This document shows, piece by piece, positions 5,346 through 59,895 of a stretch of DNA of 64,000 nt. Source of the stretch: an uncultured Gammaproteobacteria bacterium (lineage in GTDB: Bacteria; Patescibacteriota; Patescibacteriia; SBBC01; CAIJZX01); the NCBI GenBank assembly GCA_964397195.1, contig CAYNGY010000002.1, forward strand, positions 37,239 to 101,238. The letters run 5' to 3'. A program made the position numbers and the translations under genes. The notes under the pieces were generated by a model, which saw only the letters and a program-made list of their open reading frames with translations, was not told the DNA's origin and made no database searches. Every line of letters starts with the position of its first letter. The first letter of the stretch is position 1.

Positions 5346-5349
5346 TCGT

Positions 5350-8300: not shown

Positions 8301-9228
8301 CCAAGGTCTCCCACGTGTTGAAGAGCTCTTCGAAGCGCGTCCGGTGAAAATGCCGGCGATCCTCTCCGATGTAGCCGGTCGGGTGAAAGTTGAGTATGCC
8401 GCCGACCACAAAGTCATTACCATCGAATACCAAGCTTCAGGCCATGATGACTACGATTTCCCGGCTAAGCGCGGGAAGAAGAAGGTTGAGGTCGTTGTAA
8501 CCGACGGCGCAACCGTGAAAGAAGGCGAAGTCCTCTTCACCTTCGGTGAAAAGAAGACAACCGCTGAACGTCCGGGCCTCGTCAAAGTGACCGACGATAC
8601 GGTGACTGTTCACTACGATCATGCCTCGACTCGCAGCATCCCGGTTCCGCCGAACATTCAACTTCGAGTGAAAGATGGCGACCTCGTAGCGCCGGGGACG
8701 GTCCTGACGGAGGGCAGCGTCAACTTGCAGGAACTGTTCGTGCTCCGTGGCCGTGAAGCGGTCCAGAAGTACGTCATTAAAGAAATCCAGTTCATCTATT
8801 CCTCGCAAGGCCAATATCTGAACGACAAGCACATCGAAATCATTGTGCGCCAGATGTTCTCCCGCGCCTATGTCCAATCGGTCGGCAATAGTCAGCTGAT
8901 TGCTGGTGAAGTCGTCGATCGGATTATGGCCGAGAAACTCGGTCGTGACTTGGTGGCGAAGAAGAAGACTGCGCCAGAGATTACACCACTCCTCCTCGGG
9001 GTAACGAAGTCGTCACTGGCGACGGAATCATGGCTCTCGGCAGCTTCGTTCCAAGAAACCGCCCGAGTCTTAATTGATGCGGCGGTGACTGGACGGGTTG
9101 ACTCGCTCCGCGGATTAAAGGAAAACGTGATTATCGGTAAGCTCATTCCGGCCGGAACCGGATTCGAGTCTCGCCAACAAGATACCGTCGTGACGCCGGC
9201 TGACGTCGTCAGCGTCCCAGCGGACTAA
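5350..9228 (+). CDS. rpoC: DNA-directed RNA polymerase subunit beta'
   Basis: 1292-aa ORF. N-terminal zinc motif [23 protein letters not shown], catalytic [12 protein letters not shown], and C-terminal trigger loop/clamp regions. It starts 5 nt after the rpoB stop. Confidence 0.97.
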
Positions 9229-9245
9229 CACCGTTTTCGTTCCAA

Positions 9246-9279
9246 CGCCCCCGCACCATCTGGTGCGGGGGCGTTTGGT
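9246..9279 (+). terminator. rho-independent terminator after rpoC
   Basis: Perfect 12-bp stem CGCCCCCGCACC / GGTGCGGGGGCG (9246-9257 / 9262-9273) with loop ATCT, followed by TTTGG. Confidence 0.7.
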
Positions 9280-9354
9280 CTGTAACCAGGTTCGACGTTC
9301 ATATTGAATGGAATGATGGCTAGCCAGATTTTGGCTGAAATTGGGGAAAAACAC

Positions 9355-9383
9355 TTGTCGAAGGGCGAAAAAAATGGTATACT
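9355..9383 (+). promoter_or_regulatory. putative promoter of ftsK (TTGTCG-N17-TATACT, TGg extended -10), near-leaderless
   Basis: -35 TTGTCG at 9355-9360, 17-nt spacer, -10 TATACT at 9378-9383 preceded by aTGg. The in-frame ATG at 9395 lies only 11 nt downstream and has no SD. Confidence 0.5.
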
Positions 9384-9394
9384 CATTATCACCT

Positions 9395-11680
9395 ATGGCC
9401 GAAAAGCAACCTCGTCGCCGCGCTTCGGGCGCAGCGAATCCTGAACCGGAACATCCACGACGCCAACCAGCGCCACGCGAGGTGGTCCGCCCAGAAACGC
9501 GTCATGCGGTCCTGGTGGTAATTGTGCTGACCTTTGCGGCCGTTTTGTTGCTGTCGGTTTTTGGTTGGGCTGATACGTTCGGTGATCGGATTAGTGATGC
9601 GTTGGGGACTTTAGTTGGTTGGCAGCGATTCTTAGTGCCGTTCTATGGTTTGTGGCTCGGGATCGTTTTGCTCTTCCCCGAACGGTGGCACATTACCGGC
9701 CCGCGCTGGCTTGGATTCACCCTAACCTTATTGGGCTCGCTCGGGTTGATGCACATGGCGGTGCCGCTAGCCGTCGACGGACAACGTGCTATCGAGGGTG
9801 TTGGCGGCGGGTACATCGGATTTTTGGTCAGTCATGTTCCGCGATCCTCTTTGGGGCCGTGGGCCGGGGGTCTAGTCCTGGCGGCGATGCTGATTATCGG
9901 ATTGTTGATTTTGTTCAATGCCACCCTGCAGTCGCTCTATCGGCGCAGTAATTTGTTTAACGGGTTGACCATGTTGATTCGTCGTTTCCGCTGGCAACGC
10001 CGACTAGCGACGATTCAATCAGAAACAGTTCCGGCGCCGGAATTTCAGGCGACGGAAGTCCCGATCGCCCAATCCGAAACTGACGAGCCGAATGCCGGTG
10101 AACCAGCGGAGGCGGTCGACGAGCCGGACATGGTGCCGTTACCAGTTAAGAAAGAGCGTCGTCCAAAACGTCAGATCACGATCCCGATGGACCTCCTTGA
10201 TTTGGCTGACAGTAAGCCGACCAGCGGGAATATCGAACTGAATAAAGATCGGATTAAAAAGACGCTCGAGAACTTCGGCATCTCCGTCGAGATGGACGAG
10301 ATTCATGTCGGTCCGACGGTCACGCAGTATACACTCAAACCGGCGGATGGTGTGCGTCTGGCGCAGATTGCCTCACTGAAGAATGATATGGCGCTGGCCT
10401 TGGCGGCTCATCCGATTCGGATTGAAGCGCCTATCCCCGGGAAGTCGCTCGTCGGGATTGAAGTGCCGAACCAGTCAATTGCCCTCGTGACCTTGCGCGA
10501 CATCCTCGATACGGAAGAATTCCGTCGCCGGAAATCTGATCTCTCGTTCTCACTCGGGAAAGATGTTTCTGGTCAGCCGTGGGTGGCGAATTTGGAACTG
10601 ATGCCACACTTGCTGATCGCCGGTGCCACCGGGTCCGGGAAATCCGTTCAGATTAACGGCCTGATTATTTCGTTGCTGTATAGTAATTCGCCGGATGACC
10701 TCAAGCTGATCCTGGTTGACCCGAAGCGTGTCGAGTTATCACTCTACAATGACATTCCGCACCTGCTGACACCGGTGATTACTGAGACCACTAAAACGAT
10801 TAATGCCTTACGCTGGGTGGTGTCAGAAATGGATCGACGTTATCAAGTCCTCCAGAACGCACGGAAGCGCAACATTGCCGCCTATCGTCAAGATGTGAGC
10901 GATGATATGCCGTACATCTGTGTGGTCATTGATGAATTGGCGGACCTGATGTCGGTAGCCGCCAATGATGTTGAAGGGATGATTGTCCGTCTGGCCCAAA
11001 TGGCTCGGGCGGTCGGTATTCATTTGATCTTAGCGACGCAGCGGCCATCCGTTGATGTCATCACCGGATTGATTAAGGCCAACATTACCGCGCGCGTCGC
11101 CTTTAGTGTGGCCTCACAGATTGATTCGCGAACGATTCTCGATATGGCTGGCGCCGAATCGCTCCTGGGGAAAGGGGACATGCTCTTTATTTCGGCGGAA
11201 CTTTCGAAACCGAAACGGTTGCAAGGCGCGTATGTGTCCGAAGCGGAAGTCGAGCGGGTGACGAGCTACCTGAAGGCGCGGGGCAAACCTGATTACATGG
11301 CTGAAGTGACCGAAAAGCAACCGGGTGCGCCGGGACAGGGGATTGATGATCTCGGTGAAGACGAATTACTTCCGGATGCAAAAGAGGTGATTGTCCAGTC
11401 GGGTCGGGCATCAACGACGTTACTCCAGCGCCGTCTGCGCGTTGGGTATGCTCGGGCGGCACGGATTATGGATCTCTTAGAGAAAGAAGGCTTCATTGGG
11501 CCGGGTGAAGGGGCGAAGCCACGCGAAATCTACGGCCGTTCGACCGAGCACCCACCGTTTGCGCAAGACCCGCGCGATTTGCCGACGGATACCGGCGACG
11601 ATGTGCCGCTAGCGCCGGAAGAAGAAATTGAGGACGAGGAACCAGAAGATCCGGCGACCACCAACTCGAACCCCGCATGA
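9395..11680 (+). CDS. ftsK: DNA translocase FtsK/SpoIIIE
   Basis: N-terminal TM helices, proline/acidic linker, Walker A LIAGATGSGKSV, and C-terminal winged-helix gamma domain (TTLLQRRLRVGYARAARIMDLLEKEGFIGP). The start is chosen at ATG 9395, in frame with the longer track ORF 9341, because of the promoter just upstream. The start is uncertain. Confidence 0.85.
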   Translation: MAEKQPRRRASGAANPEPEHPRRQPAPREVVRPETRHAVLVVIVLTFAAVLLLSVFGWADTFGDRISDALGTLVGWQRFLVPFYGLWLGIVLLFPERWHITGPRWLGFTLTLLGSLGLMHMAVPLAVDGQRAIEGVGGGYIGFLVSHVPRSSLGPWAGGLVLAAMLIIGLLILFNATLQSLYRRSNLFNGLTMLIRRFRWQRRLATIQSETVPAPEFQATEVPIAQSETDEPNAGEPAEAVDEPDMVPLPVKKERRPKRQITIPMDLLDLADSKPTSGNIELNKDRIKKTLENFGISVEMDEIHVGPTVTQYTLKPADGVRLAQIASLKNDMALALAAHPIRIEAPIPGKSLVGIEVPNQSIALVTLRDILDTEEFRRRKSDLSFSLGKDVSGQPWVANLELMPHLLIAGATGSGKSVQINGLIISLLYSNSPDDLKLILVDPKRVELSLYNDIPHLLTPVITETTKTINALRWVVSEMDRRYQVLQNARKRNIAAYRQDVSDDMPYICVVIDELADLMSVAANDVEGMIVRLAQMARAVGIHLILATQRPSVDVITGLIKANITARVAFSVASQIDSRTILDMAGAESLLGKGDMLFISAELSKPKRLQGAYVSEAEVERVTSYLKARGKPDYMAEVTEKQPGAPGQGIDDLGEDELLPDAKEVIVQSGRASTTLLQRRLRVGYARAARIMDLLEKEGFIGPGEGAKPREIYGRSTEHPPFAQDPRDLPTDTGDDVPLAPEEEIEDEEPEDPATTNSNPA

Positions 11681-27114: not shown

Positions 27115-27660
27115 ATGCACGAAGAACGTGAATCCAACGATTTGGAAATCTTGGCCGCCGCTCAGCGCGGTGACCAATCGGCCGTCCGCGCCCTCTATGA
27201 TCGGTATGCAACCTTCGTCTTTCATTGGGTTGCCCGGCGGGTCGATCGCCGTGAAGATGCCGAAGATTTAACCGCGGATATCATGTTACGCATGGTCGAG
27301 GCACTACCGACAGCAAAACCAACTGCTACCTTTAAGGCCTGGCTCTTCGGCATCGGTCGACATGTGCTGGCTGATTTTTGGCGAACGACGTATCGCTTGC
27401 CTGAAGCTGAGCTAATCCCGGAGCTACTCGGTGCCCCTGGCGATGAGCCCGATCCACAGGATGATGGGAGTCTGCGGGCAAAAGCGGAGGAAGTAATTGC
27501 ACAGTTGCCTGACCAGTATCGAGCGGTTCTCGAACACCGTTTTTTTCATCTCCATACCATAGCCGAGACAGCGACGGCGATGGCCACCTCAGAGGGGAAC
27601 GTCAAAGTTCTCCAGTATCGCGCTCTCAAAAAAGCCGCTGAATTAGCTGCACGCGTATGA
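27115..27660 (+). CDS. ECF-type RNA polymerase sigma-70 family factor
   Basis: 181 aa from the ATG at 27115. Region 2 LEILAAAQRGDQSAVRALYDRYATFVFHWVARRV...DLTADIMLRMV, and region 4 LPDQYRAVLEHRFFHLHTIAETATAMATSEGNVKVLQYRALKKA. The stop overlaps the next start (ATGA). Confidence 0.8.
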   Translation: MHEERESNDLEILAAAQRGDQSAVRALYDRYATFVFHWVARRVDRREDAEDLTADIMLRMVEALPTAKPTATFKAWLFGIGRHVLADFWRTTYRLPEAELIPELLGAPGDEPDPQDDGSLRAKAEEVIAQLPDQYRAVLEHRFFHLHTIAETATAMATSEGNVKVLQYRALKKAAELAARV

Positions 27661-30600
27661 GCAACCCACACGACCAGATTAACGATTACCTCGAATACAT
27701 CGCCGGTCGCCGTAAAAAGGCACCGTCTCTATCCGTCGAGGATCAGGATGTTCTGAGGGCGATGCATTTATTGCGCCATGCACGGCCACACACCGATCCC
27801 CGTCCAGAATTTATTTCCACCTTAGGACAGAAAGTTATGAGCCAACAGCCGCGGCCACAGACGTTATCGAAAAAACAAGTAGTTCATGCAGCACCAACGT
27901 GGTCGGTATCTTGGTGGTGGCTACGGTTAGCGCCAGTAATGGCGACGGCGGCGATTGTCTTGGCAATGGTACAGCTCCCGGCCGGGGTCAACGACTTCAA
28001 CTGGACGCTTTTCCGAAAGTCAGTGATTCAGGAAGCATCGGCGGCGACGATTACCTTGGTGGCGGCCGATACGACTGCCACGGGTATTTCGCCGACAACT
28101 GCTTTCGTGGTGACAGGCAAAGATGGGACGTTGACCGAAGAGATGGTCAGGAAGAATCTGGTGTTTTCGCCAACGATTGATGCCGAGATTCAGGCGGCGG
28201 GTGATAATACCTACCGACTCATCCCAAAGACCGCCCTCGATCAGTCGGTGGTGTATGCGGCGACGTATGCTGGACAAGCGAAGGCAACGGATGGGACGCT
28301 TCAGGCCCGAAATTATTCATGGGCCTTCCAAGTCCGCCGTGATTTTATTGTGATCGGGACGTACCCACGCGACGCCGCGACCTATGTTGAGATCACATCC
28401 GGGTTGGATATCACATTCTCGAGCGGAGGTGTCAGCGTTAAGGATTTTGAAAAAGCACTTTCCATAGTGCCGGCCACGCCCCATACGATTGAGATTCACG
28501 GCCGGACGATGTCGATTATACCGAAAAACCCGTTACAGGAGCGCACTATCTATACCGTGACGATTAAGGCCGGGCTCCACCCGGACAAAAGTACGATGTC
28601 GCTAGCTGATGATGTAGTGACGCGGTTCGAGACCGGCACGAAAGACGGGTCGGGAACGACAACAGCGTTTCATTCACGATCTGCATTTGAGACCGTCGCA
28701 CCAGGGGATTCGATTTACTTCTCCGACAGCGCTGTTCCGGGCGACGCGTCAAACGGAACAAAGGACTGGAAAACCAGTTACGAGTTTGCGATTTATTCAT
28801 TCCCGTCGCTCGAGACCTTCAAAAAAGCTATTGAAACGCGGTTAGAACATGCGTTCGGCTGGGCATCGTTCAATGAGATGCCATTAATGACGGTGACAGG
28901 ATTAAGTAAGGTGGCGACCGTGAAGACTGTTTCGCATGACGGCGTGATGAGCTTGCCAAAATCTTTTGCGCCGGGCGCATATGTGGCCGAGACAATGGTT
29001 GGCGGGGTGCGGACGCAAATGCCGTTCATCGTATCGGATATTAGTAACTACACCATGTCCACAGCCACCGATACGGTCGTGTGGGTCCATCACCTTTCCA
29101 CCAAAAAACCGGCGGTCGGCGCAACTATTACCTTGGCCGACAATACCACCGTTAAGACGGATCAAGAAGGATTGGCTCGTTTCCCAACGCCAAGCGCTCT
29201 CGGACAGTCTGGCGCACCAAATATGGTGGTTCGCATCGCCGTTGGAACAACTGAAACGCTCAGCGTTCTTGCGGCTTCAAACTCGGGCTCAATATACTAC
29301 GGCCGGAATTACACCAGCCTTGATAACTACTGGGCGTACCTGACAACCGATCGTAGCCTGTATCGTCCGACTGATACGGTTCACTTTTGGGGGTTACTAC
29401 AACCACGAGACACACGCGCAGCGGTCGAGAAGGTCAGCGCGCGCTTAGTGGTGACGAACTGGGATCGGGGTGGAGCGGAGACGGTGATGAAAGAGGTGCC
29501 CGTGACGTTAACCGCCGACCATACATTTATCGGCGAGATCCCGCTTCGTGAAGCTTCAGTTGGTTGGGGCAAGGAATTGCGGATCTATGTCGGCGAGCAA
29601 TGGGTCATGACCCGCTATCTTGATGTGCAGGTATTTCAGACCCCGGCGTATCAGCTGAGCGTCACATCAGACAAGCCGGCAGTCTTTGATAACGAGGAAG
29701 TGACCTGGACGGTTCGGGCCTCGTTCTTTGATGGTACGCCGGTCCCAAATCTCAAAGTAAAATTGACCACCAACGGTGAATATACACTGACGACAAATGC
29801 TGCCGGTATGGTCTCGAAGAAAGTTCGGTTGACCATGGCACAGGGCGGATCGGCATCAGCGGTTCCCGTGGATGACGCGACGAATAATATTCAGGGGTGG
29901 GGCTATGTGACGGTTTATCCGGCCGCGCGTTCCATTATCGCTACAAGCTCGACGACGGATTCGACGGTTAAAGTATCTGGAACCGTACGGACGGTAAACC
30001 CAACGAAAGTTGATATGGCCGCTAGCAATCCGTTCGCGGCAGTTGTAGGCGATCCGGTGGCGAACGCTACGGTTCACGTGCGCCTGATCAAAACAACCTA
30101 TACGGCGGTGAAAAACGGTCAGGTCTATGATTTCCTGACGAAACAAGTCGTGCCGAAGTATCAATATACTTCGAGTGAAGCCGATAGAGAGGCCTTAGAT
30201 GTGGTGACCGATGGTGACGGAAAGTTCCAATACACATTTACCGCTGAGGATTTGTCGGGCTATCGTGTTGAGTTAACAACTACGGATGAGGCTGGGCGGA
30301 CAGAGTCGCAAACGCTGTTCCCATGGTTTTCTTATCCGAGTGACGCCCCGGCATTTTCCCTGACAACTTTCCAGCCATTGAACACGCCGTGGAAAGTTGG
30401 TGATGCGGTGACGCTTTCGATTGTCGGAACAAAAAAACAGGAAGAGGCGCCGAAGCATCTCGCGTATCTCTACATGCTGAGCCAACGCGGACTGAAAACG
30501 GCCGACGTCAGCGCAAAATCAACGCTCGATCACATTTTTACTGAAGCTGATGTGCCGAATGTGAGCGCTCGCGCCGTTGTGTTCACGGGTACCGGATATA

Positions 30601-32765
30601 GTGAACTGAACGAGCAATTTTTCAACTTTGATTCAAGTACGCGGGCGTTAGCGGTGTCCCTCACGACCGATCAAAAGAGTTATGAACCAGGCGAGACGAT
30701 TACTGCACATGTGAAACTGCGTGATGCGGATGGTGCCGGGGTGGCCGGACGGGTGAATGTTCGTGCGGTCGATGAAGCCATTACGAATCTGCAGTACGAT
30801 TGGGGCAATGACACCCCGCTGACAAGCCTCTACCGAAACGTCTCAAGCGGTGAATACGGGAGCTATGTTAGCCATCAAGCGTTTGGCCGGAATGATGTGA
30901 TGGCCGAAGGTGGGGGTGGTGGCGATCGCATCGACTTTAAAGATGTCGCCCATTACTCCGAAGTACAAACTGATGCGGCTGGAAACGGCACGGTCACGTT
31001 CGTCGCGCCGGATAACATCACGTCATGGCGCATGGTCGCACAGGCTATTAGCCCTGATCGACGGGCTGGTACGGCCACGACCCTCGTGGCAGTCACCCGG
31101 CCAATCTTTGTTCGACCGGATGTCCCGACGGTGATCTTGGCTTCGGATGTCGTTGACGTTCAAGCAAGCGTCTTTGGCTCGGCGGTTACGTCTGGTGATA
31201 CGACCAATATTACCTTTTCCATTGTTGGGCAGACGGGGACGGAGAAAACCGTTCACGGAAAAGTGTTTACCCCTCTGCAGTATCGATTGCCGAAACTCCC
31301 GGTTGGTTCATACCAGGTGCGCATGTCCGCCTCGGCGAAAGGACATGTCGATTCGGTTGTCATGCCATATCGGGTGACGACGACGACCCTGACAACGGCG
31401 GTCACCAGTGTTGCTCTATTGGAGAAAAACGAGACACCGCTGTTGAGCACTTCAGATCGGACCGATATTGGGATTGGTCAGGCGGATCGGATGTTTGCGT
31501 ACGCCGCATTGGATCGTCTGCTCTGGAATTCCCAACTGCGTCTGGATGATGCAGTAGCGTCGAGTATGGCGGCGACGCTCCTCCGCGAACACTTTAAAAA
31601 AGATTACGGTACCTCGGTCTATGACCCGCTCACATTTTTAACGACGAGTGGTGTCGCGCTCTACCCGGTTGGGAGTAACGATCTTGAATATGGCTCGCTC
31701 GCGGCGACTGATACGGCGATGGCGGCATATCGTGGCCAGCTTGTGATATGGTTCCGATCGGCACTCGATAATCCGAAGACGAATACGGAGCAGGCCATCT
31801 ATGCGCTCTACGGGTTGGCACAGCTCCATGAGCCGGTCTTAGATCAAATCCATCAATATCTCGATCTCGAGGGGATTACCGATCAAGAACGTCTAACGTT
31901 AGCCTTGGCGCTTGAGACCTTGGGTGCCCGTGAAGAAGCGCGTCCGATTGCGACGTATCTCTGGGAAACGTATGGGAAGTCGGAGGCACCATACGCGTGG
32001 ATGACATTGGGTCGGAATGAAGAAGAGCGACGGGTTCAAACCGGGCGGTTCGCTATTTTAGCGGCGGGTTTACAACTTGATACTCGGTATGGCCTGTTGC
32101 AGTATATCGAGACCCACCAGCCACAAGACACGACGACCCATCTTGAAATGGCGCTGGTGGCACAACGGTTGCTGCGGGCGGCAGGCACATCGTCGGTATC
32201 GGTCACGTACCAATTGAATGGCGAAACGAAAACAGCGACTTTGGCACGGAATGAATCAATTGGGCTGTCTGTTGATAGTACTGAGGCGAAGACCTTCACG
32301 ATTACGCATCACACGGGTAACGTGGTTGCTGTCACGCATACGACACAGTCATTGAGCGCGGCGAATGCGACGGATCCAAAGCTATCGGTAACGAGACGCT
32401 ATAGCAAGGACGGTAAACCGACGACGTCTTTCACGCGTGGTGAGATTATTCGAGTCGATGTTTCGTGGTCGGCCAAGTCCGGGGCGCCGGGCACCTACTA
32501 CGGTGTGATCGACTCATTGCCTACGGGATTACGACCGTTGTCTAACCAGTATGTGTTCGGCGCGACCTACGACTCGCATCTCGTGTATCCGATGGCGATA
32601 GATTCGCGGCGGGTGCTGATTCGGTCAGGTGAGAAGAGTTTCCATTATTATGTACAGGCGGTATTGAGCGGAAACTATTCGGCCGAACCGGCGATGCTCC
32701 AGGCGCTTGACGCGCCCGGTAGTTATACGGTCAGTCCAGCCAGCCAAGGCATCACCATCAAATAG
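27657..32765 (+). CDS. giant membrane-anchored protein (1702 aa): anti-sigma-like N-terminus, one TM helix, huge ectodomain of beta-sandwich (Ig/MG-like) repeats plus an alpha/alpha-toroid-like region
   Basis: Cytoplasmic N-terminus (about 100 aa) then TM WWWLRLAPVMATAAIVLAMV. Very long T/S/V/G-rich repetitive beta-strand-like sequence. A helical region near 31.4-32.1 kb (YAALDRLLWNSQ..., YALYGLAQLHEPVLDQIHQYLDLEGITDQERLTLALALETLGAREEA) resembles alpha/alpha toroid repeats. It contains almost no Cys, so there is no CxEQ thioester. It is translationally coupled to the ECF sigma gene. Confidence 0.7.
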   Translation: MSNPHDQINDYLEYIAGRRKKAPSLSVEDQDVLRAMHLLRHARPHTDPRPEFISTLGQKVMSQQPRPQTLSKKQVVHAAPTWSVSWWWLRLAPVMATAAIVLAMVQLPAGVNDFNWTLFRKSVIQEASAATITLVAADTTATGISPTTAFVVTGKDGTLTEEMVRKNLVFSPTIDAEIQAAGDNTYRLIPKTALDQSVVYAATYAGQAKATDGTLQARNYSWAFQVRRDFIVIGTYPRDAATYVEITSGLDITFSSGGVSVKDFEKALSIVPATPHTIEIHGRTMSIIPKNPLQERTIYTVTIKAGLHPDKSTMSLADDVVTRFETGTKDGSGTTTAFHSRSAFETVAPGDSIYFSDSAVPGDASNGTKDWKTSYEFAIYSFPSLETFKKAIETRLEHAFGWASFNEMPLMTVTGLSKVATVKTVSHDGVMSLPKSFAPGAYVAETMVGGVRTQMPFIVSDISNYTMSTATDTVVWVHHLSTKKPAVGATITLADNTTVKTDQEGLARFPTPSALGQSGAPNMVVRIAVGTTETLSVLAASNSGSIYYGRNYTSLDNYWAYLTTDRSLYRPTDTVHFWGLLQPRDTRAAVEKVSARLVVTNWDRGGAETVMKEVPVTLTADHTFIGEIPLREASVGWGKELRIYVGEQWVMTRYLDVQVFQTPAYQLSVTSDKPAVFDNEEVTWTVRASFFDGTPVPNLKVKLTTNGEYTLTTNAAGMVSKKVRLTMAQGGSASAVPVDDATNNIQGWGYVTVYPAARSIIATSSTTDSTVKVSGTVRTVNPTKVDMAASNPFAAVVGDPVANATVHVRLIKTTYTAVKNGQVYDFLTKQVVPKYQYTSSEADREALDVVTDGDGKFQYTFTAEDLSGYRVELTTTDEAGRTESQTLFPWFSYPSDAPAFSLTTFQPLNTPWKVGDAVTLSIVGTKKQEEAPKHLAYLYMLSQRGLKTADVSAKSTLDHIFTEADVPNVSARAVVFTGTGYSELNEQFFNFDSSTRALAVSLTTDQKSYEPGETITAHVKLRDADGAGVAGRVNVRAVDEAITNLQYDWGNDTPLTSLYRNVSSGEYGSYVSHQAFGRNDVMAEGGGGGDRIDFKDVAHYSEVQTDAAGNGTVTFVAPDNITSWRMVAQAISPDRRAGTATTLVAVTRPIFVRPDVPTVILASDVVDVQASVFGSAVTSGDTTNITFSIVGQTGTEKTVHGKVFTPLQYRLPKLPVGSYQVRMSASAKGHVDSVVMPYRVTTTTLTTAVTSVALLEKNETPLLSTSDRTDIGIGQADRMFAYAALDRLLWNSQLRLDDAVASSMAATLLREHFKKDYGTSVYDPLTFLTTSGVALYPVGSNDLEYGSLAATDTAMAAYRGQLVIWFRSALDNPKTNTEQAIYALYGLAQLHEPVLDQIHQYLDLEGITDQERLTLALALETLGAREEARPIATYLWETYGKSEAPYAWMTLGRNEEERRVQTGRFAILAAGLQLDTRYGLLQYIETHQPQDTTTHLEMALVAQRLLRAAGTSSVSVTYQLNGETKTATLARNESIGLSVDSTEAKTFTITHHTGNVVAVTHTTQSLSAANATDPKLSVTRRYSKDGKPTTSFTRGEIIRVDVSWSAKSGAPGTYYGVIDSLPTGLRPLSNQYVFGATYDSHLVYPMAIDSRRVLIRSGEKSFHYYVQAVLSGNYSAEPAMLQALDAPGSYTVSPASQGITIK

Positions 32766-33633: not shown

Positions 33634-33659
33634 CCCGTCGGGCATGGTATACTTTTGGC

Positions 33660-48868: not shown

Positions 48869-50825
<1,957 letters not shown>

Positions 50826-50857
50826 GACTCGACAGCGTTGGGTCCCCCCGACGCGGG

Positions 50858-50898
50858 ACAAAGGACCTCGCCATCATGCGGGGTCCTTTGTTGTTTCC
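50858..50898 (+). terminator. rho-independent terminator after groEL
   Basis: 10-bp stem ACAAAGGACC / GGTCCTTTGT (50858-50867 / 50882-50891) with a 14-nt loop, followed by TGTTTCC. Confidence 0.55.
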
Positions 50899-50943: not shown

Positions 50944-50972
50944 TTGCCAAAAGGGGATTTTTATGGTATATT
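50944..50972 (+). promoter_or_regulatory. putative promoter (TTGCCA-N17-TATATT with TGg) for the 51097-54893 gene pair
   Basis: -35 TTGCCA 50944-50949, 17-nt spacer, aTGgTATATT 50964-50972. The leader is about 120 nt and contains small hairpins. Confidence 0.5.
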
Positions 50973-51096
50973 GTACTCACGAAATGGACATAAAAACGAG
51001 AATCGGTACGTTGAAGTACCTTTTTACTTAGTAACGGAATAGCGACGGCGGCTTCGCCGAATACTTTTTCATTCATTTCAACTCATACACAAACCT

Positions 51097-51429
51097 ATGG
51101 ACGCGCTCCATTTACTCAAGGGTAACATCATCGATCTCCTTGGTTTACAACACCTCCCGGCTGACCGACAGCAGGTTCTCTTGGAACAAATGAGCCAGGT
51201 TTTGCAGGATCGTTTGACGGATCGCCTGATCGAATCTCTGTCCGCCGATCAACGCGATGCCTTCGACCAACTTCTGAATGCGAACCCGCCGGCGGATACG
51301 GTAGATGCCTTTTTTAAACAACACTTGCCGGAGTATATCGATATCGCGATGGACGAAGTCGCGAAGTTTAAGAAAGAACTCGTGAACGAAGTAGCAACGG
51401 TTCGTCAGATCGTCGCTAGCACCTCGTAG
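51097..51429 (+). CDS. hypothetical small helical protein (110 aa)
   Basis: Complete ORF. The next ORF starts 2 nt after its stop, so the two are probably translationally coupled. Confidence 0.5.
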   Translation: MDALHLLKGNIIDLLGLQHLPADRQQVLLEQMSQVLQDRLTDRLIESLSADQRDAFDQLLNANPPADTVDAFFKQHLPEYIDIAMDEVAKFKKELVNEVATVRQIVASTS

Positions 51430-51431
51430 CC

Positions 51432-54400
51432 ATGTCTGAGAAATTTCCACCTGAAGAAGCTGCTGGTCATCGGCCAGTAGAGACGGATGAAGTAAAAAGT
51501 ATTCTTGATGATTTGGCGCGACGTATCGCCCAAAATGAAGATGTGACGGATGCAGAGTTGCGACAGACGCAGAACGTGGTTAATGGACTTACCGGTCGTA
51601 CGGACGAGGATTTTGAGTCTTTTTATACGCAGATTACCGATCGAGCGACGCGTGTTGAACAAGAAGATCGGGCCCGTGAGGCTCGTGATCAGGAAGTCAT
51701 CGAGAAAACTGAGGCGCTGAAGAAAATTATCGCCGAGCACCCGGATGATGTGACGGCAATTCGAGCGTTGGCCGAAGAAATCCGAACGCAGGATGTGATT
51801 GATCATCGTGGTCAGACCGTTCGCGAATTTTTCCGAGACCTGCTGGTTGACCCAGCGCCGTACTATACCGTCGAGGAATTGGGTCCCGATGATGTCACCC
51901 CTCCGACGACGGAAGGAGAACCATCGCCATCCGTTTCGCCAGCCACGACGACTGAACCAGAACTCGAGCCAATCAATGTCGTCCCACCAGTGGAAACCAC
52001 TCTCCCAGAATCAGAGACGCCGGCTGTTGACGCCCCAGCCGCTTGGTCGTTGCCACAGCCGGGCCGACGAGTCGGGAAGGATGGAAAGCCGCTCCGCCGT
52101 TTGACGACCGACCAGCGTGAGAAAGCGGAAGCGGAGTATTCGCGACTACGGACTGAAATTGAACAGAAATGGCCGGATGTTGAATGGAAATATCAGCAGT
52201 TAGACAAGAAACAACGAGAAGACTCAGTCCGATCCGATCCAGAAATGCAGCCGCTTCTGAAGGAATACGTTCGGGCGAAGGAATTGTTAGCTCACCCGGT
52301 CCGTCGCGATCGCCGTGCGCCACAAACGACCGAACCAAAATCGACTGTCCCGTCGGGCGCATCCTCGGCGCCGAGCGAAGCAGAGCCGGTTATTCCGGTG
52401 GTGAGCGAACCAACGGTGGGACCGGTACCCGAAGCACCGGCCTCGGATATTCAGCCGCGAGGCACGATTGCTCCAGAGACAACGGACCATCTTTCGCCGG
52501 CGGATAAAGAAAAAGTAGCGGCGACCACGGCGGCGATGGCGGTCAATACACCGATGGGGCCGTTGCGGACCGAGCTCTCTGGTGTCGCGAAAGCCCTTGG
52601 TGCTGAAGTGCCGGTTGAACCGGAACCGATCGTGCCACCGGTGCAGCCAGCGCCATCAGCGCGGCCCGTGACACCATCACGAACGGTGCGCGACTTTAAT
52701 CCGGAAGCGCCGATGCAGGATGAGCAACCGCTCTATCCGGCGGGGTATACGGGCGAAACGATTCGTCCGACAGAACCGGTAGTGATTGAAGACGCGGCGA
52801 CGCGAGTGAGCGGCACGCCCGAAACGGTGGGTACGCCGGAAGCGCGTGAAGTCGCCGCCATGGAGTTTAATGAAAAATTGATTCAGGCCGAAGAGACCTA
52901 CGCGAAGGCGCTCCGACGCGAGGGACACTGGTGGAATTTTGGGAATAAATCAAAACTCGAGAAAGCAAAGAACGAGTATGATATTCTCGTCGGTGAAGCG
53001 CGGCAAAAAGGCGCTCTAGCGATCGTCGAAAAGTTTAAACAATCGGGTCGTCTCGATAACCCGGTCGTCCAAGATACATGCATCGCTGAGGCGCTGGCAT
53101 TTGAAAAGCAATTTGTGAGCCAAGCCCAAGCGCATTTTCGCGAAGCGATGCGTGGTGATAAGGAACAGAGCGGATTCGAGCAAAAAGTTGAACATTTCCG
53201 GACGTGGTGGCGAGTAAATAGTAAGGCCCGGGCTGTGGTTTCAGCTGGGTTGTTTGGGATCGGTATGGCCGGCGCCCTGACGGGTAACTTCTTTGTGACG
53301 GGTGCTGCGTCCGCATTACGTGGCGCTATTGCGGCGGTTGGTAGTGAAGGGGCGATGCGTGCCGGTGGAAAAGCCATTGGTCGGAAGTGGGGTGCGAGTA
53401 AGGAAATGACCGCTGAGCACATCGGGAAAATTACAGACCTCGGTGAGCTGCGGACGCGTATTTCCGCCCATACCTTTGACACTCTTGAATTTGGTGAAGA
53501 AAAGTTTGGTGTTCGGAAGGTAGGGAAACGTGAAGACCGTACGGGGGCGATGCTCCAAGAGCGATATGGCGAGCTCTTGCGGGCGGAGATGGAGAAAGGG
53601 GTACTGGCCCAAAAAGAAGCCGGGAAAACACCGGATCAGATTATTGACTGGTTCTTATCGTCTACCGTGTCTGACCGTCACGAATTGCATAATGCCTACG
53701 TTCAGCGACTGCATAAGAACAAGTTGTCGTCGCAGATTCGGGTGACCGCTTCGGCTGGGATCGGTTTGCTGGCGGGGATGGCTTCTCATACCGGGGCGGA
53801 GCATCTGTCGAAAACGAAAGCGGCGGATTGGGTCAAGAATTTGTTTCACTTCGGCCATGATGACACACACCGTCAGGTGGTGGCTGGGGCCGGACGGGCA
53901 GGACGATCATTTGTGATGGCGGCGCCGGATACGAGTCATACTGTTAGTGCCGCGGTTGAAGCGCCGGCCCATACGGCGGCGCAAGAGGCGGCCGCACAAA
54001 ACATCGCTAGCATGCTTGAGAAGGCCCAAAAAGGTGACAATGTTTGGGCATTGTCGGAGCGTTTCTTCGGCACGCATGCGCCAGGGCTTACTCCTGAACA
54101 TGCCTCACGTTTTGCGGCATATGCGCAAGAGGCCATTCGCCAACAAGCAAGTGAGCTGGGCATCACTGATCTATCTAAAATCAACATTGATCAAACCATC
54201 GATTATTCCAAAATAGATTGGGGTAAGGTAGATTTTTCCAAGATTGGTGACGCTCATCATTTCCGTTCTCTCCAAGAAGTCTTAGATTCCGTGAAAGGGA
54301 CTTCTGCGCAGACATTGAGGAGCATTGCAGAGAACAATCAAACGATCCAGGAATGGTCGGTAGCACATCCGGGGGAAGCTGTGACCGGCGATCTACTACG

Positions 54401-54893
54401 AACGGTGGCGAAGGGCACAAAAAAGGCGATTGTTGCTGTTGCGTCCGAACCCAGTACGCCGTCGATTGCCGTTGAAGCTACGGGGAGCGTGCCGGGCGAG
54501 GCGATAGATTCGGCGATTGCGCAGAGTGTCGAACGGAGCGTTCAAGCGGCGGAGGTAGCTGCACCGGTAACTCAGGAAGTGGCAAAAACACTGCTGATGC
54601 GGCCAGAGATTTCCTCGGCCTTTGATACCCTTCGAATTCAAATTCTCCCGATTGCGAGCGAGGCTCGATCGACGTTGACGGCTGAGTTATCCAAGATGAG
54701 CCTACAGCAAGCCGAGACGCCGGGCCTGCTTGAAGGCGTGGTGTCGAAAGCCGTGACCGGGGCGCCGGAAAAAACGGCGGCGGTGGTTGAATCTGTTCGG
54801 ACCTTCGCAAAAGCACTTCGAGCCGGTGGCCATCTCGCGAATGAGTCGGTAGCTGCGGGCATAGAATGGACACGCAGTTTTCAGGGTCGGTAG
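51432..54893 (+). CDS. hypothetical large protein (1153 aa): acidic coiled-coil N-terminus, Pro/Thr/Glu-rich low-complexity linker, central Gly/Ala-rich hydrophobic segments, helical C-terminal region
   Basis: Composition seen directly. Long PxxP-rich acidic stretches (about 51.9-52.7 kb). Putative TM segments AVVSAGLFGIGMAGALTGNFFVTGAASALRGAIAAVG and VTASAGIGLLAGMASHTGAE. No recognisable catalytic motif. Confidence 0.6.
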   Translation: MSEKFPPEEAAGHRPVETDEVKSILDDLARRIAQNEDVTDAELRQTQNVVNGLTGRTDEDFESFYTQITDRATRVEQEDRAREARDQEVIEKTEALKKIIAEHPDDVTAIRALAEEIRTQDVIDHRGQTVREFFRDLLVDPAPYYTVEELGPDDVTPPTTEGEPSPSVSPATTTEPELEPINVVPPVETTLPESETPAVDAPAAWSLPQPGRRVGKDGKPLRRLTTDQREKAEAEYSRLRTEIEQKWPDVEWKYQQLDKKQREDSVRSDPEMQPLLKEYVRAKELLAHPVRRDRRAPQTTEPKSTVPSGASSAPSEAEPVIPVVSEPTVGPVPEAPASDIQPRGTIAPETTDHLSPADKEKVAATTAAMAVNTPMGPLRTELSGVAKALGAEVPVEPEPIVPPVQPAPSARPVTPSRTVRDFNPEAPMQDEQPLYPAGYTGETIRPTEPVVIEDAATRVSGTPETVGTPEAREVAAMEFNEKLIQAEETYAKALRREGHWWNFGNKSKLEKAKNEYDILVGEARQKGALAIVEKFKQSGRLDNPVVQDTCIAEALAFEKQFVSQAQAHFREAMRGDKEQSGFEQKVEHFRTWWRVNSKARAVVSAGLFGIGMAGALTGNFFVTGAASALRGAIAAVGSEGAMRAGGKAIGRKWGASKEMTAEHIGKITDLGELRTRISAHTFDTLEFGEEKFGVRKVGKREDRTGAMLQERYGELLRAEMEKGVLAQKEAGKTPDQIIDWFLSSTVSDRHELHNAYVQRLHKNKLSSQIRVTASAGIGLLAGMASHTGAEHLSKTKAADWVKNLFHFGHDDTHRQVVAGAGRAGRSFVMAAPDTSHTVSAAVEAPAHTAAQEAAAQNIASMLEKAQKGDNVWALSERFFGTHAPGLTPEHASRFAAYAQEAIRQQASELGITDLSKINIDQTIDYSKIDWGKVDFSKIGDAHHFRSLQEVLDSVKGTSAQTLRSIAENNQTIQEWSVAHPGEAVTGDLLRTVAKGTKKAIVAVASEPSTPSIAVEATGSVPGEAIDSAIAQSVERSVQAAEVAAPVTQEVAKTLLMRPEISSAFDTLRIQILPIASEARSTLTAELSKMSLQQAETPGLLEGVVSKAVTGAPEKTAAVVESVRTFAKALRAGGHLANESVAAGIEWTRSFQGR

Positions 54894-54899
54894 AGACTT

Positions 54900-54931
54900 G
54901 ATTTTCTTCGGTGGTCGTGGCGTGGTATACT
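54900..54931 (+). promoter_or_regulatory. putative leaderless promoter (cgTGgTATACT) 7 nt upstream of the 54939 ATG
   Basis: TATACT at 54926-54931 preceded by TGg. ATG at 54939. No SD. Confidence 0.4.
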
Positions 54932-54938
54932 GAGGGTC

Positions 54939-55340
54939 ATGACCGATTACCACTTGCCATCGGCGCGGGCGATGATCGGAGGCTGGACCCTCGATCGTTA
55001 CCAGCGGCTCCTTGTACCACAAATCATCGTCAGCCCGCTCCTGCTCGTTTTGGTCTTGTTGCGTTGGCCGAATATCATTCTGGTTGCTGCCGAGCTCGCT
55101 TGGTTTGCCTGGGTTGGGGTTCGGACCGGACAACGACGCGGCGGACGGATTGAGGCTTTGGCGAGCGGCGCCTTGAGTGGCTTCTTTTCTGGGCTCAGCG
55201 TCTCGCTTGGACGATGGCTGATTGACCGCGATGCACGGTGGGGCGCAAATGTGATTGCGGAAACGCTCATCACCGCTGGAGTTGGTGCCTTGATCGCGAC
55301 GGCGCTCTTTCTGACGGTCCGCCGACAACCCCGAACATAA
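54939..55340 (+). CDS. hypothetical integral membrane protein (133 aa, about 4 TM)
   Basis: Four hydrophobic helices and no recognisable family. Confidence 0.55.
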   Translation: MTDYHLPSARAMIGGWTLDRYQRLLVPQIIVSPLLLVLVLLRWPNIILVAAELAWFAWVGVRTGQRRGGRIEALASGALSGFFSGLSVSLGRWLIDRDARWGANVIAETLITAGVGALIATALFLTVRRQPRT

Positions 55341-55378
55341 ATAGATCATCAATTTACTAAACACCAACAGGTAATCCT

Positions 55379-57780: not shown

Positions 57781-59895
57781 ATGGCCGCCCAGCGACTTTC
57801 ACGGTACGCCGCACTTCTGACGGTGGCCGTGGTCTTGGGCGGGTTGCTGAATCAGTGGTGGCGTCATGACGCGACCGCTGATTTCAGTGGGGCACCAGCG
57901 GCCTTGGCCCAGACGCGGGCGCCGCTCGCCGTCGATACGATTCCGTTTCCACACAGCTTTTTGTACAGCGGGATAAATAGCTCCGGGTGGCCATACGTGG
58001 GGAATCTCGGTACGACCGGTGTCTGCTCGAGTGGTGGCGCGGCCTGTGCGTTTAGCTCAGATTGTACCGGGTATACACAGTCATGTGCCAATCCGAGCTA
58101 TCCGTCACCGCTGGCGAGCCCAATCAATCAGGCGGTGATCGCGGCCGCCTCGCGCTATCAATTTATGTCGGTCCCGCCGACGCCGACGATTGATATCCGG
58201 CCGGATATCTACACCGCAATTCGTCAGGCGAACCCGAATCAGTACTTGCTGGCGTATACTATGGGGAGCACGACCTGGTGTCCGTATGCAGACGCTGGCC
58301 ATTTGAATAGTTACCCGGTTGGATCATATTATCGTGGGTACTGGCTGGCGGCGACTGGCGGCGATCCGAGTTGTGACTACCAGGGCGATCGTCTGCTATG
58401 GGCGCAAGATGGGACAGCGCCCAGTGCTGCGATGGTGAATGTGAATATTGCCAAGCGTCTTGGTGATGAGGTCAATGGCTACACCTACCCGGTGGCGGAC
58501 GCGGTGGCGGAGAATATTTTCACATTCGGCATCGCTAATCAGAAATTCGATGGGGTTTTCGTCGATGTGATGTGCGACAATATCGGTTGGATGGAATCCG
58601 GTGGATTCGCGTTCGATTATGCGCGGGCCGGGTACACCGCCGGGAATGGACACACGGCGCGTGAGAACTTCCTGAGCGGCTGGAAGGCTGGTCATACCGA
58701 GCTAGCACGAAAGCTCCGTGAATTGGCGACCGCCGCCGGTTACCCAGATTTTGCCATTTACGGAAACTGCAACCCGGGGCCGGTAGCGACGTATCCGTAT
58801 CTGAATGGGTGGATGCGGGAAGGATTTCCCTATCAGGATGGCGGAGACTGGTTTACGAATATGTACAGTGAACCGGGCGGGATGTTTATGGAAGCGTATC
58901 GGTATCGTAGCCCGCAACAAAACTTTGTCTTTACGCCGGCCGATCCGTACTGGCAACCGGTGAGTATGAGCAACCAACGGAAGATGCGTTTCGGATTGGG
59001 GACCGCGTCGTTAGCGAATAGCATGTCGGCGTTTCATGAGAGCTCGGGCGGCGCGACGATCTCGCCAAACTACAATTTTTGGTATGACGAATATGGGGTG
59101 AATGTGATTACCGGCCAGGCCGACGCGACCAAGACCGGTTGGCTGGGAATGCCGAAAGGTCCGGCGTATCAGGTGATAAACCCAAATACGAATGCAAATC
59201 TGGTCCCGGTCTCTGGATTTGAAACCGGGATGGATAATTGGTCGTTGTCGGTCAGCGGGTCGGCGGCGGCGACCGTCACCCGCGAGGTCGGGTCGGCGGC
59301 CGATGGCGGCACAGCGGTGCATGTCGCGGCGAGTCAAGTGATGCCATATGATTACTCGGTGAATTTTACGCATAGTAGCGCGTTCACCATAACCGCAAAC
59401 CAGGAATATAGCGTGACCTTCTGGGCGAAGGCGGATCATCAGCGAACGATTACCGTCGCGTTCGATCGACCGGCGGCCGGTGGCTACGCGGCTCGTCATC
59501 AGCCGATTGATACGACGTGGCGGCGATACCAAGTGATGCTTAAGCCACTCGGTTCGCACGCTGATAGTAATATCTGGTTTAGCTTGGGCGCCGAGATCGG
59601 CGATGTCTGGCTCGATGATATTCGGGTACAGCCGGGGTTTACGAGTCTCTACCGCCGGGACTTTGATCACGGGACGGTCCTAGTTAATCCGGGCTTGCAA
59701 ACCCAAACCGTACAACTCGATAAACCGTATTATAAGATTTTGGGTACGATCAATCCGAGTTTGAATGACGGGTCGATGGTGTCACAAGTGACGGTGGCCG
59801 GAACATCGGGGAATGCGGGGATTGGTGATGCGCTCTTTCTGGTTGATATGGATAAAACGCCGCCGAGTAAAATCCAGGATCTTTCCGCTCAGTAG
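57781..59895 (+). CDS. hypothetical secreted protein (704 aa), W/Y/G-rich, possibly carbohydrate-active with a C-terminal beta-sandwich
   Basis: N-terminal signal/TM (LLTVAVVLGGLL). The aromatic-rich composition is typical of glycan-binding or glycan-processing proteins. No catalytic motif was assigned by eye. Confidence 0.55.
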   Translation: MAAQRLSRYAALLTVAVVLGGLLNQWWRHDATADFSGAPAALAQTRAPLAVDTIPFPHSFLYSGINSSGWPYVGNLGTTGVCSSGGAACAFSSDCTGYTQSCANPSYPSPLASPINQAVIAAASRYQFMSVPPTPTIDIRPDIYTAIRQANPNQYLLAYTMGSTTWCPYADAGHLNSYPVGSYYRGYWLAATGGDPSCDYQGDRLLWAQDGTAPSAAMVNVNIAKRLGDEVNGYTYPVADAVAENIFTFGIANQKFDGVFVDVMCDNIGWMESGGFAFDYARAGYTAGNGHTARENFLSGWKAGHTELARKLRELATAAGYPDFAIYGNCNPGPVATYPYLNGWMREGFPYQDGGDWFTNMYSEPGGMFMEAYRYRSPQQNFVFTPADPYWQPVSMSNQRKMRFGLGTASLANSMSAFHESSGGATISPNYNFWYDEYGVNVITGQADATKTGWLGMPKGPAYQVINPNTNANLVPVSGFETGMDNWSLSVSGSAAATVTREVGSAADGGTAVHVAASQVMPYDYSVNFTHSSAFTITANQEYSVTFWAKADHQRTITVAFDRPAAGGYAARHQPIDTTWRRYQVMLKPLGSHADSNIWFSLGAEIGDVWLDDIRVQPGFTSLYRRDFDHGTVLVNPGLQTQTVQLDKPYYKILGTINPSLNDGSMVSQVTVAGTSGNAGIGDALFLVDMDKTPPSKIQDLSAQ

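Follow-up and report, generated by a model that had tools for sequence, protein, structure and literature searches.

Two adjoining genes on the forward strand of contig CAYNGY010000002.1 form a conserved pair, in which a gene for a small protein of the Pfam family DUF5663 directly precedes a gene for a 1153-amino acid (aa) member of an unnamed protein family. The pair lies within a 64,000-nucleotide (nt) stretch of that contig, which we analyzed as a whole and refer to as the window. A DUF5663 gene was adjacent to and co-directional with a member of the large family at every one of the distinct loci at which both flanks could be read (13/13). Because the pair persists while its order and its surroundings change, there is strong evidence from sequence comparison that the two genes form a functional unit. 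As to what this unit does, we propose, tentatively, that it constitutes a scaffold that spans the envelope and has DUF5663 as its partner in the cytoplasm. The two genes, both taken from the list of open reading frames (ORFs), are the following:

51097..51429, + strand: small ORF of 110 aa; the DUF5663 gene, encoding an acidic protein (pI 4.6) predicted to form five helices.
51432..54893, + strand: large ORF of 1153 aa; a member of the unnamed family, which appears restricted to the candidate phyla radiation (CPR).

The stop codon of the small ORF (TAG at 51427-51429) is followed by the two nucleotides CC and then by the ATG of the large ORF at 51432, which leaves a gap of 2 nt. A first-pass annotation, made from the sequence alone, had already given these coordinates, the 2-nt gap, and a promoter, and all three were confirmed exactly by the ORF list, a promoter scan, and comparison with relatives.

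Conservation of the pair was assessed by running hidden Markov models (HMMs) of DUF5663 and of the large-protein core over all ORFs of all fetched loci, together with the gene tables. The 13 distinct loci are the window, L003, L005-L012, L014, L015, and L020; L001 is the window contig itself, and duplicates were merged (L002, L004, L016, and L018 with L003; L019 with L010). Two of the contigs, L005 and L007, end inside the large gene, and their visible N-termini are homologous to the window's. At L020, the DUF5663 gene is followed by a gene for a 1577-aa protein (6514-11247) that was missed by the HMM and that aligns with the family profile exactly at the helical hairpin described below. The only locus without a visible DUF5663 gene was L013, where the contig starts 66 nt before the large gene. 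DUF5663 was never found fused inside a large family member. The intergenic gap measured 2-32 nt at 10 of the 13 loci, the exceptions being L010 (148 nt), L020 (213 nt), and L007 (73 nt, as the gene was called). In a distant subfamily (L012, L014, and L015), the two genes stand in inverse order, DUF5663 being the downstream one. The window's groES-groEL/ppsA context recurs in the close relatives (L002-L004), and the other neighbors differ among the distant loci, where they include a ribosomal protein operon, a reverse transcriptase, ftsEX, and ftsH. The coupling suggested by the first-pass annotation is thus borne out, with the small ORF conserved and adjoining a large member at every informative locus. 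Evolution is slow in the small protein (69-74% identity) and fast in the large one, whose core is 32% identical and whose N-terminus does not align; such a contrast is typically seen when a scaffold has a conserved adaptor as its partner.

Several of these loci have features of their own. Apart from the hairpin, the 1577-aa protein of L020 consists of different modules, apparently including three repeated C-terminal helical units of ~110 aa, and it possibly represents a sister family. At L010, an RVT_1 reverse-transcriptase gene (4555-5433) lies directly upstream of the DUF5663 gene and may explain both the 148-nt gap and the different context. L008 (CAZCGY010000007.1) carries a typical pair and is labeled "uncultured Gammaproteobacteria"; it is probably a mis-binned or mislabeled CPR contig. 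Pattern scans for DUF5663 returned two loci in genome_contigs and five in metagenome_contigs (three of these already known), and one DUF5663 alignment was too divergent to yield a scan pattern.

The 110-aa protein matched Pfam DUF5663 (PF18908) with 39.7 bits against a gathering cutoff of 23.7, over profile positions 4-83 of 84, so that the earlier statement that the pair has no recognizable domains fails for the small protein. The same family was matched by each of the 13 relatives that were examined (best E 6.7e-12). Seven close homologues are 59-74% identical to the window's protein, and the distant ones, still DUF5663, are 27-44% identical. No signal peptide, transmembrane (TM) segment, or hydrophobic segment was found in the 110-aa protein, which is predicted to be cytoplasmic. 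Its AlphaFold2 (AF2) model, with a mean predicted local distance difference test (pLDDT) score of 79, has helices at residues 2-15, 22-46, 50-61, 66-76, and 80-109, and a Foldseek search of the PDB with this model gave no fold match (best E 2.1). We found no mention of DUF5663 or PF18908 in the literature searched; the family is uncharacterized and all-helical. The 13 DUF5663 proteins also gave weak, subthreshold matches to TarS_linker (9/13; best E 6.8e-4) and MgtE_N (5/13), which probably reflect generic helical similarity.

The large protein matched no family in Pfam, NCBIfam, PHROGs, or PADLOC, and PDB sequence searches with its core and with a core profile matched nothing. Word-indexed homology searches, whether started from the full protein or from the core profile, retrieved nothing beyond the query, because their prefilter of 8000 candidates filled up with low-complexity words. 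We therefore gathered relatives by exhaustive phmmer over 1.84 billion representatives (E <= 1e-3). This search returned 37 representatives, 19 of them at E <= 1e-10, and ~34 family representatives remained after removal of the query itself and of P0037 and P0042, which matched only in a repeat-like N-terminal stretch. Every named member is a "hypothetical protein" from metagenome-assembled genomes of Kerfeldbacteria or the Patescibacteria group, with P0025 as the exception by name. Judged by these sequences, the family is small, fast-evolving, and restricted to Patescibacteria/CPR. The closest full-length orthologue, at L003 (1199 aa), aligns over residues 449-1149 with 32% identity (E 1e-90). 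In agreement with the first-pass annotation, neither protein of the pair matched a well-characterized family in our sequence and structure searches.

The protein had been described as mostly low-complexity and E/D/P/T/A-rich. This composition is true of the N-terminal ~450 residues and of two linkers, but not of the remainder: the C-terminal ~700 residues are conserved and are predicted by AF2 to be folded and helical. The whole protein has a pI of 5.4, the net charge over residues 1-200 is -28, and Pro makes up 14-17% of the 100-residue windows 101-200, 301-400, and 401-500. Similarly, the claim that it lacks recognizable domains stands as far as named Pfam or NCBIfam families go, but the protein does contain three conserved folded modules, one of them LysM-like at its start. 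Mapping the parts of the query onto the members, together with a core alignment (A3), gave the following layout in the window:

51432..52838, + strand: variable N-terminal region, aa 1-469, acidic and Pro/Thr/Ala-rich; not alignable to L003 and predicted to be cytoplasmic.
51501..51842, + strand: N-terminal island 1, aa 24-137; conserved only with the nearest relatives.
52041..52421, + strand: N-terminal island 2, aa 204-330; conserved only with the nearest relatives.
52839..53801, + strand: module A, aa 470-790, helical; the best-conserved stretch of the family.
53220..53366, + strand: family signature, aa 597-645, a Gly/Ala-rich helical hairpin (alignment block and AF2).
53724..53786, + strand: third hydrophobic helix, aa 765-785, putative TM3, at the end of a 53-residue AF2 helix (265-317).
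53994..54446, + strand: module B, aa 855-1005; separable in searches, in alignment A7, and in the AF2 model (pLDDT 80-89).
54603..54890, + strand: C-terminal helical domain, aa 1058-1153; phmmer match to P0009 (8.7e-09) and AF2 pLDDT of 82-92.

Members of the family share this plan. The plan starts with a variable N-terminal region that is acidic and rich in Pro, measures 30 to >900 residues, and has no signal peptide in any member; the two islands within this region in the window protein are 61% identical to L007 and 34% identical to L005. Next comes the helical module A, with two hydrophobic regions ~170 residues apart, and then a variable linker rich in Ala, Thr, Pro, His, and Asp. Module B follows (~150 residues), which matches alone in more distant proteins. 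A second variable stretch leads to the C-terminal helical domain of ~95 residues, which has conserved columns in A3. One member, the 1705-aa P0025 (L013, 67-5184), carries an FtsK-gamma winged-helix DNA-binding domain at aa 299-363, N-terminal to module A (Pfam E 1.7e-23). In the Pfam searches, no member had an FtsK/SpoIIIE motor domain and only P0025 had the gamma domain; the window protein has neither. The NCBI name of P0025, "DNA translocase FtsK," is thus an over-annotation of a gamma domain without a motor.

The two Gly/Ala-rich hydrophobic segments noted in the first-pass annotation were confirmed, with peaks at aa 599-617 and 765-783, and both are conserved family-wide. The first of them belongs to the family signature, in which a W/K/R-rich juxtamembrane stretch (F-x-x-W-W-K-K-H-x-K-A-R) is followed by Gly-rich hydrophobic helix 1 (aa 597-617), an uncharged three-residue turn (TGN), and helix 2, which starts at aa 620. 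Helix 2 is Gly/Ala-rich, has a conserved Arg at its middle, ends in (T/S)E, and leads into a basic stretch (R-x-K-F-G-x-T-K-E). This hairpin corresponds to AF2 helices 128-148 and 151-184 (model numbering is the protein residue minus 469), and its signature is kept in the distant subfamily and in the L020 protein (hhalign E 1e-4, probability 57%). The third hydrophobic helix follows ~115 residues after the hairpin, with a Kyte-Doolittle (KD) peak of 1.03 in the window protein and 1.2-1.9 in homologues. The core has no hydrophobic windows other than these three segments, whose position is conserved even among very divergent members. On the Hessa scale, their best 19-mers averaged +4.6, +6.6, and +4.2 kcal/mol, compared with +12 elsewhere in the core; in the distant subfamily, the 19-mers reached +1.7 to +2.9 kcal/mol, with KD values of up to 1.97. 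In the AF2 model of module A, blocks with a pLDDT of 80-93 flank the hydrophobic helices, which themselves score 53-67.

Across 14 cores, the net charge ahead of helix 1 was +3.6 and the turn was uncharged, and Lys and Arg residues together numbered 3.3 after helix 2; around helix 3, they numbered 3.6 on its N-terminal side and 1.7 on its C-terminal side. The position of the FtsK-gamma domain in P0025 further implies that the N-terminal region is cytoplasmic. This charge distribution, the FtsK-gamma insert, and the LysM-like module favor a predicted topology with the N-terminus inside, a membrane hairpin, a cytoplasmic middle domain, TM3, and the C-terminus outside.

Module B opens with a LysM-like element, modeled by AF2 as beta-alpha-alpha-beta, and continues with a helical subdomain (NNxxLxxWxxxHPxExLTS). 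Its start reads x-V-x-K-G-D-S-V-W-K in most members and A-Q-K-G-D-N-V-W-A in the window, and relatives close the element with F-G-L-x-D-x-D-x-L-x-V-G-Q-x-I-D-F. In a Pfam scan of 25 module B segments, LysM was the commonest family (11/25; the next had 5), with matches spanning profile positions 2-16, rarely 2-31, of 43; the best score for LysM (PF01476), obtained with a relative, was 20.8 bits against a gathering cutoff of 20.9. The leading NCBIfam models for the same 25 segments were all LysM-based, namely those for SafA/ExsA (13/25; best E 5.5e-6), YneA (6), and "peptidoglycan-binding protein LysM" (PRK11198; 4), with Rpf and muramidase models among the weaker matches. Moreover, the module B profile weakly touched the LysM regions of LytE and SafA among PDB sequences. 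Module B thus resembles LysM domains (PF01476; SafA, YneA, and YgaU-type models) in the beta1/helix-1 motif at its start (x-V-x-K-G-D-S-V/L-W-K-I/L) and, in relatives, in the end of the element (L-x-V-G-Q-x-I-D-F). However, it differs in having a helix-2 region longer than the canonical one, and the window's copy is the most divergent. We accordingly term the module LysM-like, a designation of resemblance rather than of membership. LysM domains are typically extracytoplasmic glycan binders, so the module, if real, agrees with an external C-terminus.

In the arrangement that we tentatively propose, the long acidic, Pro-rich, and largely disordered N-terminus would lie in the cytoplasm together with the first helical bundle of module A. 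The Gly-rich helical hairpin would dip into or cross the membrane, returning the second conserved helical domain to the cytoplasm, and the third hydrophobic helix would then cross the membrane. The flexible linker, the LysM-like module, which would probably touch peptidoglycan or another glycan, and the C-terminal helical domain would be outside. DUF5663 would be co-produced with the large protein from a single transcript and would act on the cytoplasmic side as an obligate partner (adaptor, regulator, or stabilizer). Such an assembly could anchor cytoplasmic components at one fixed position on the cell envelope and, in P0025, might attach directly to DNA through the FtsK-gamma domain. Of the roles that the first-pass annotation had suggested, a scaffold or cell-surface system fits this arrangement, but a secretion-related one found no support: there is no signal peptide, there are no secretion genes nearby, and the neighborhoods vary.

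A number of observations weigh against the proposed scaffold. The hydrophobic helices are marginal for insertion (KD 0.9-1.2, with positive apparent free energy), helix 2 contains the conserved Arg, and AF2 confidence is low at precisely these helices. Every LysM match falls below the cutoff, and most extend no further than a third to a half of the way into the domain; in the window, module B itself gave no LysM match in Pfam or NCBIfam. The FtsK-gamma fusion is a single case. Among the loci compared, no genomic neighbor points to a process, and the sample is limited to the 13 distinct loci, given the saturated word-indexed searches and sparse pattern scans. If the membrane helices are discounted, the pair could be a purely cytoplasmic or peripheral scaffold in which the Gly/Ala-rich helices are buried, amphipathic, or monotopic and module B and DUF5663 both stay inside the cell. 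We consider this unlikely, because the three segments are the sole hydrophobic windows of the core and hold their position, those of the distant subfamily are clearly TM-like (KD up to 1.97; +1.7 kcal/mol), the flanking charges follow the positive-inside pattern, and LysM-type matches arose in two independent libraries. The pair might instead be a dedicated landmark for cell division or chromosome positioning, marking the division site or pole and connecting the wall with the nucleoid or divisome; DUF5663 would then be an adaptor of the GpsB/DivIVA type. The FtsK-gamma fusion in P0025, a layout like that of MapZ (PMC4931243, PMC7055233), and the presence of some loci near murE/PBP (penicillin-binding protein) or ftsEX would all suit such a role, but these division-gene neighbors are inconsistent across loci. 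In a profile search of PDB sequences, DUF5663 residues 48-94 did weakly match residues 8-58 of the GpsB N-terminal domain (E 0.002), across a stretch resembling the DivIVA hallmark ("EVDaFLdd..aDY"). However, an unrelated PRESAN domain scored equally well, none of the 13 DUF5663 members matched the DivIVA family in a Pfam scan at E <= 10, and the AF2 model is a five-helix bundle without a coiled coil. We therefore rejected a GpsB/DivIVA identity as a chance helical match, and the landmark role itself appears a shade more unlikely than a cytoplasmic scaffold.

An exported or host-directed effector, such as an alpha-helical pore-former or an adhesin of an episymbiont with DUF5663 as its chaperone, is improbable. 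A small acidic helical protein beside a large hairpin-bearing protein does resemble chaperone/substrate pairs, and Foldseek on the large-protein model listed the ClyA-family toxins XaxB and NheA, but these matches were nonsignificant (E 2.5-3, probability <0.1). There is, moreover, no signal peptide, no secretion-system genes lie nearby, the settings are housekeeping ones, and the FtsK-gamma fusion of P0025 argues for a cytoplasmic N-terminus. The combination of a small helical ORF and a long helical protein with Gly-rich hydrophobic stretches also bears a superficial likeness to a phage tail remnant, with an assembly chaperone and a tape-measure protein. Tape-measure proteins, too, have LysM or lytic domains and hydrophobic segments rich in Gly. 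Nevertheless, a phage or defense origin is effectively refuted and hardly credible for this pair: neither protein matched a PHROGs or PADLOC family, no locus contained phage genes, the groEL-ppsA position is stable in relatives, and the window's neighbors are groEL, ppsA, uvrA, dnaG, and rpoD.

In the window, the pair has these features upstream and downstream:

49182..50825: groEL, the gene upstream of the pair and of the terminator.
50857..50892, + strand: intrinsic terminator of groEL, with a 15-bp stem (8 GC pairs), a 6-nt loop, and a T-rich tail.
50944..50972, + strand: promoter of the pair, sigma-70-like, TTGCCA-N17-TATATT with a TG extension (TGgTATATT), matching 10/12 consensus positions.
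50973..51096, + strand: 5' leader of ~124 nt, with two small hairpins and a U run after each; minimum free energy of -24 kcal/mol.
54939..55340: gene for a predicted membrane protein of 133 aa downstream of the pair, with a TGGTATACT box at 54923-54931.

The groEL terminator marks the upstream boundary of the two-gene unit. The -35 element and extended -10 element of the promoter are kept in the alignment of four related loci (L003, L005, L006, and L007; CTTGCCA...TGGTATA), and the extended -10 word TGGTATAHT occurs seven times in the window compared with 0.44 expected, a number reached in 0 of 100 shuffles. The promoter call is therefore well supported. Together with the 2-nt gap, this one conserved promoter indicates that the pair is an operon, and the next gene has a promoter box of its own. 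The copies lie at 9375, 26998(-), 33645, 44637(-), 50964, 54923, and 63288, several of them no more than ~10 nt away from the start of an ORF (such as 33645-33653, ahead of the ATG at 33660). This placement suggests widespread leaderless mRNAs and some miscalled upstream TTG/GTG starts (9341, 27031, and 44687).

The first-pass annotation had also described a structured leader of about 120 nt. A leader is indeed present, but it is only modestly structured (z = -1.9 relative to shuffles, with 7/200 folding equally well) and not conserved. It is missing in three of the four relatives, the leaders of L003, L006, and L007 being only ~30 nt long, and no Rfam family matched it. We therefore rejected a riboswitch or leader-RNA reading; the leader is probably a lineage-specific insert rather than a conserved regulator.

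Downstream of the pair, the TGGTATACT box lies only 8 nt ahead of the ATG of the 133-aa gene, which suggests that this gene is expressed from a leaderless transcript. Its product is 50% identical to a 134-aa protein at the same place in L003 and is absent from the distant loci. Because it occurs in close relatives only and has its own promoter box, we rejected it as a third component of the unit. An antisense ORF of 221 aa (54702-55367), picked by one gene caller in L001, is probably spurious.

Two further genes of the window stood out. One encodes a 1702-aa bacterial alpha-2-macroglobulin-like protein (27657-32765; A2M, MG2, bMG3, bait-region, and bMG10 domains), which appears notable in an apparently small CPR-type genome. 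The other, directly after ppsA, encodes a 704-aa protein (57781-59895) with a weak match to the carbohydrate-binding family CBM_4_9 (27.8 vs. 25.9 bits) and is absent at the corresponding place in L002/L003.

CPR/Patescibacteria account for a large share of bacterial diversity, and most of their lineage-specific proteins have no assigned function. In the literature that we searched, we found no earlier description of the constant pairing of DUF5663 with the large protein, of the hairpin signature, or of the LysM-like module. DUF5663 thereby gains its first context, an invariant genomic partner, and the unnamed family is now defined by its W/K/R-rich stretch, Gly-rich hairpin, third hydrophobic helix, LysM-like module, and C-terminal helical domain. 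Were the envelope-spanning scaffold correct, it would be a pointer to how tiny CPR cells organize their cytoplasm relative to the wall; were it wrong, the pair would still be a clean two-protein module for interaction and localization studies. More speculatively, and with a low probability in our view, the pair could be a lineage-specific CPR envelope organizer that anchors the nucleoid, the division machinery, or the host-contact machinery, or more than one of these, to the wall and replaces positioning systems that reduced genomes lack, with DUF5663 as a conserved cytoplasmic adaptor and the Gly-rich hairpin as a new membrane-anchoring signature. Nothing in the pair contradicts current understanding, and it is one of many conserved hypotheticals.

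We finally compared the pair with known systems. The small protein belongs to DUF5663 (PF18908), a known, uncharacterized family. The large protein does not group with the ClyA-type pore-forming toxins XaxB and NheA, to which it has no significant fold match, and the pair does not group with phage tape-measure proteins and their chaperones, as shown by the lack of a PHROGs match and of any phage structural context. Closer parallels are offered by two membrane-anchored systems, one a polar organizer (HubP/FimV) and the other a landmark of the division site (MapZ). HubP/FimV has an N-terminal periplasmic LysM-like domain, a TM segment, an acidic cytoplasmic hub, and a C-terminal FimV/TPR domain (PMC12918733). 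The large protein is predicted to resemble it in combining a LysM-like module and a membrane anchor with an acidic, disordered cytoplasmic part of great length, although by defined domains and composition only the acidic composition is common to both. However, the order is reversed, with the acidic region N-terminal and the LysM-like module C-terminal, and a hairpin and third helix take the place of the single TM. Neither the window protein (Pfam and NCBIfam) nor 35 members (Pfam) matched a FimV or TPR model, and neither a sequence nor a fold match to HubP/FimV was obtained. MapZ (LocZ) of streptococci consists of a disordered cytoplasmic domain, a TM segment, and a bimodular extracellular peptidoglycan-binding domain, whose two helical subdomains are connected by a flexible linker (PMC4931243, PMC7055233). 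Here, the predicted likeness lies in the N-terminal disordered cytoplasmic part, the membrane anchor, and the outer helical modules on a flexible linker. In contrast to MapZ, the large protein is much larger and has extra cytoplasmic helical modules, a membrane hairpin, three hydrophobic helices instead of a single TM, and a dedicated small partner gene, and it gave no Pfam or PDB-sequence match that would indicate homology. By this comparison, the large family is analogous to, and not homologous with, HubP/FimV or MapZ. With low-to-moderate confidence, we would place the pair, by its architecture, as a variant among membrane scaffolds that are anchored to the wall and carry a disordered hub in the cytoplasm.

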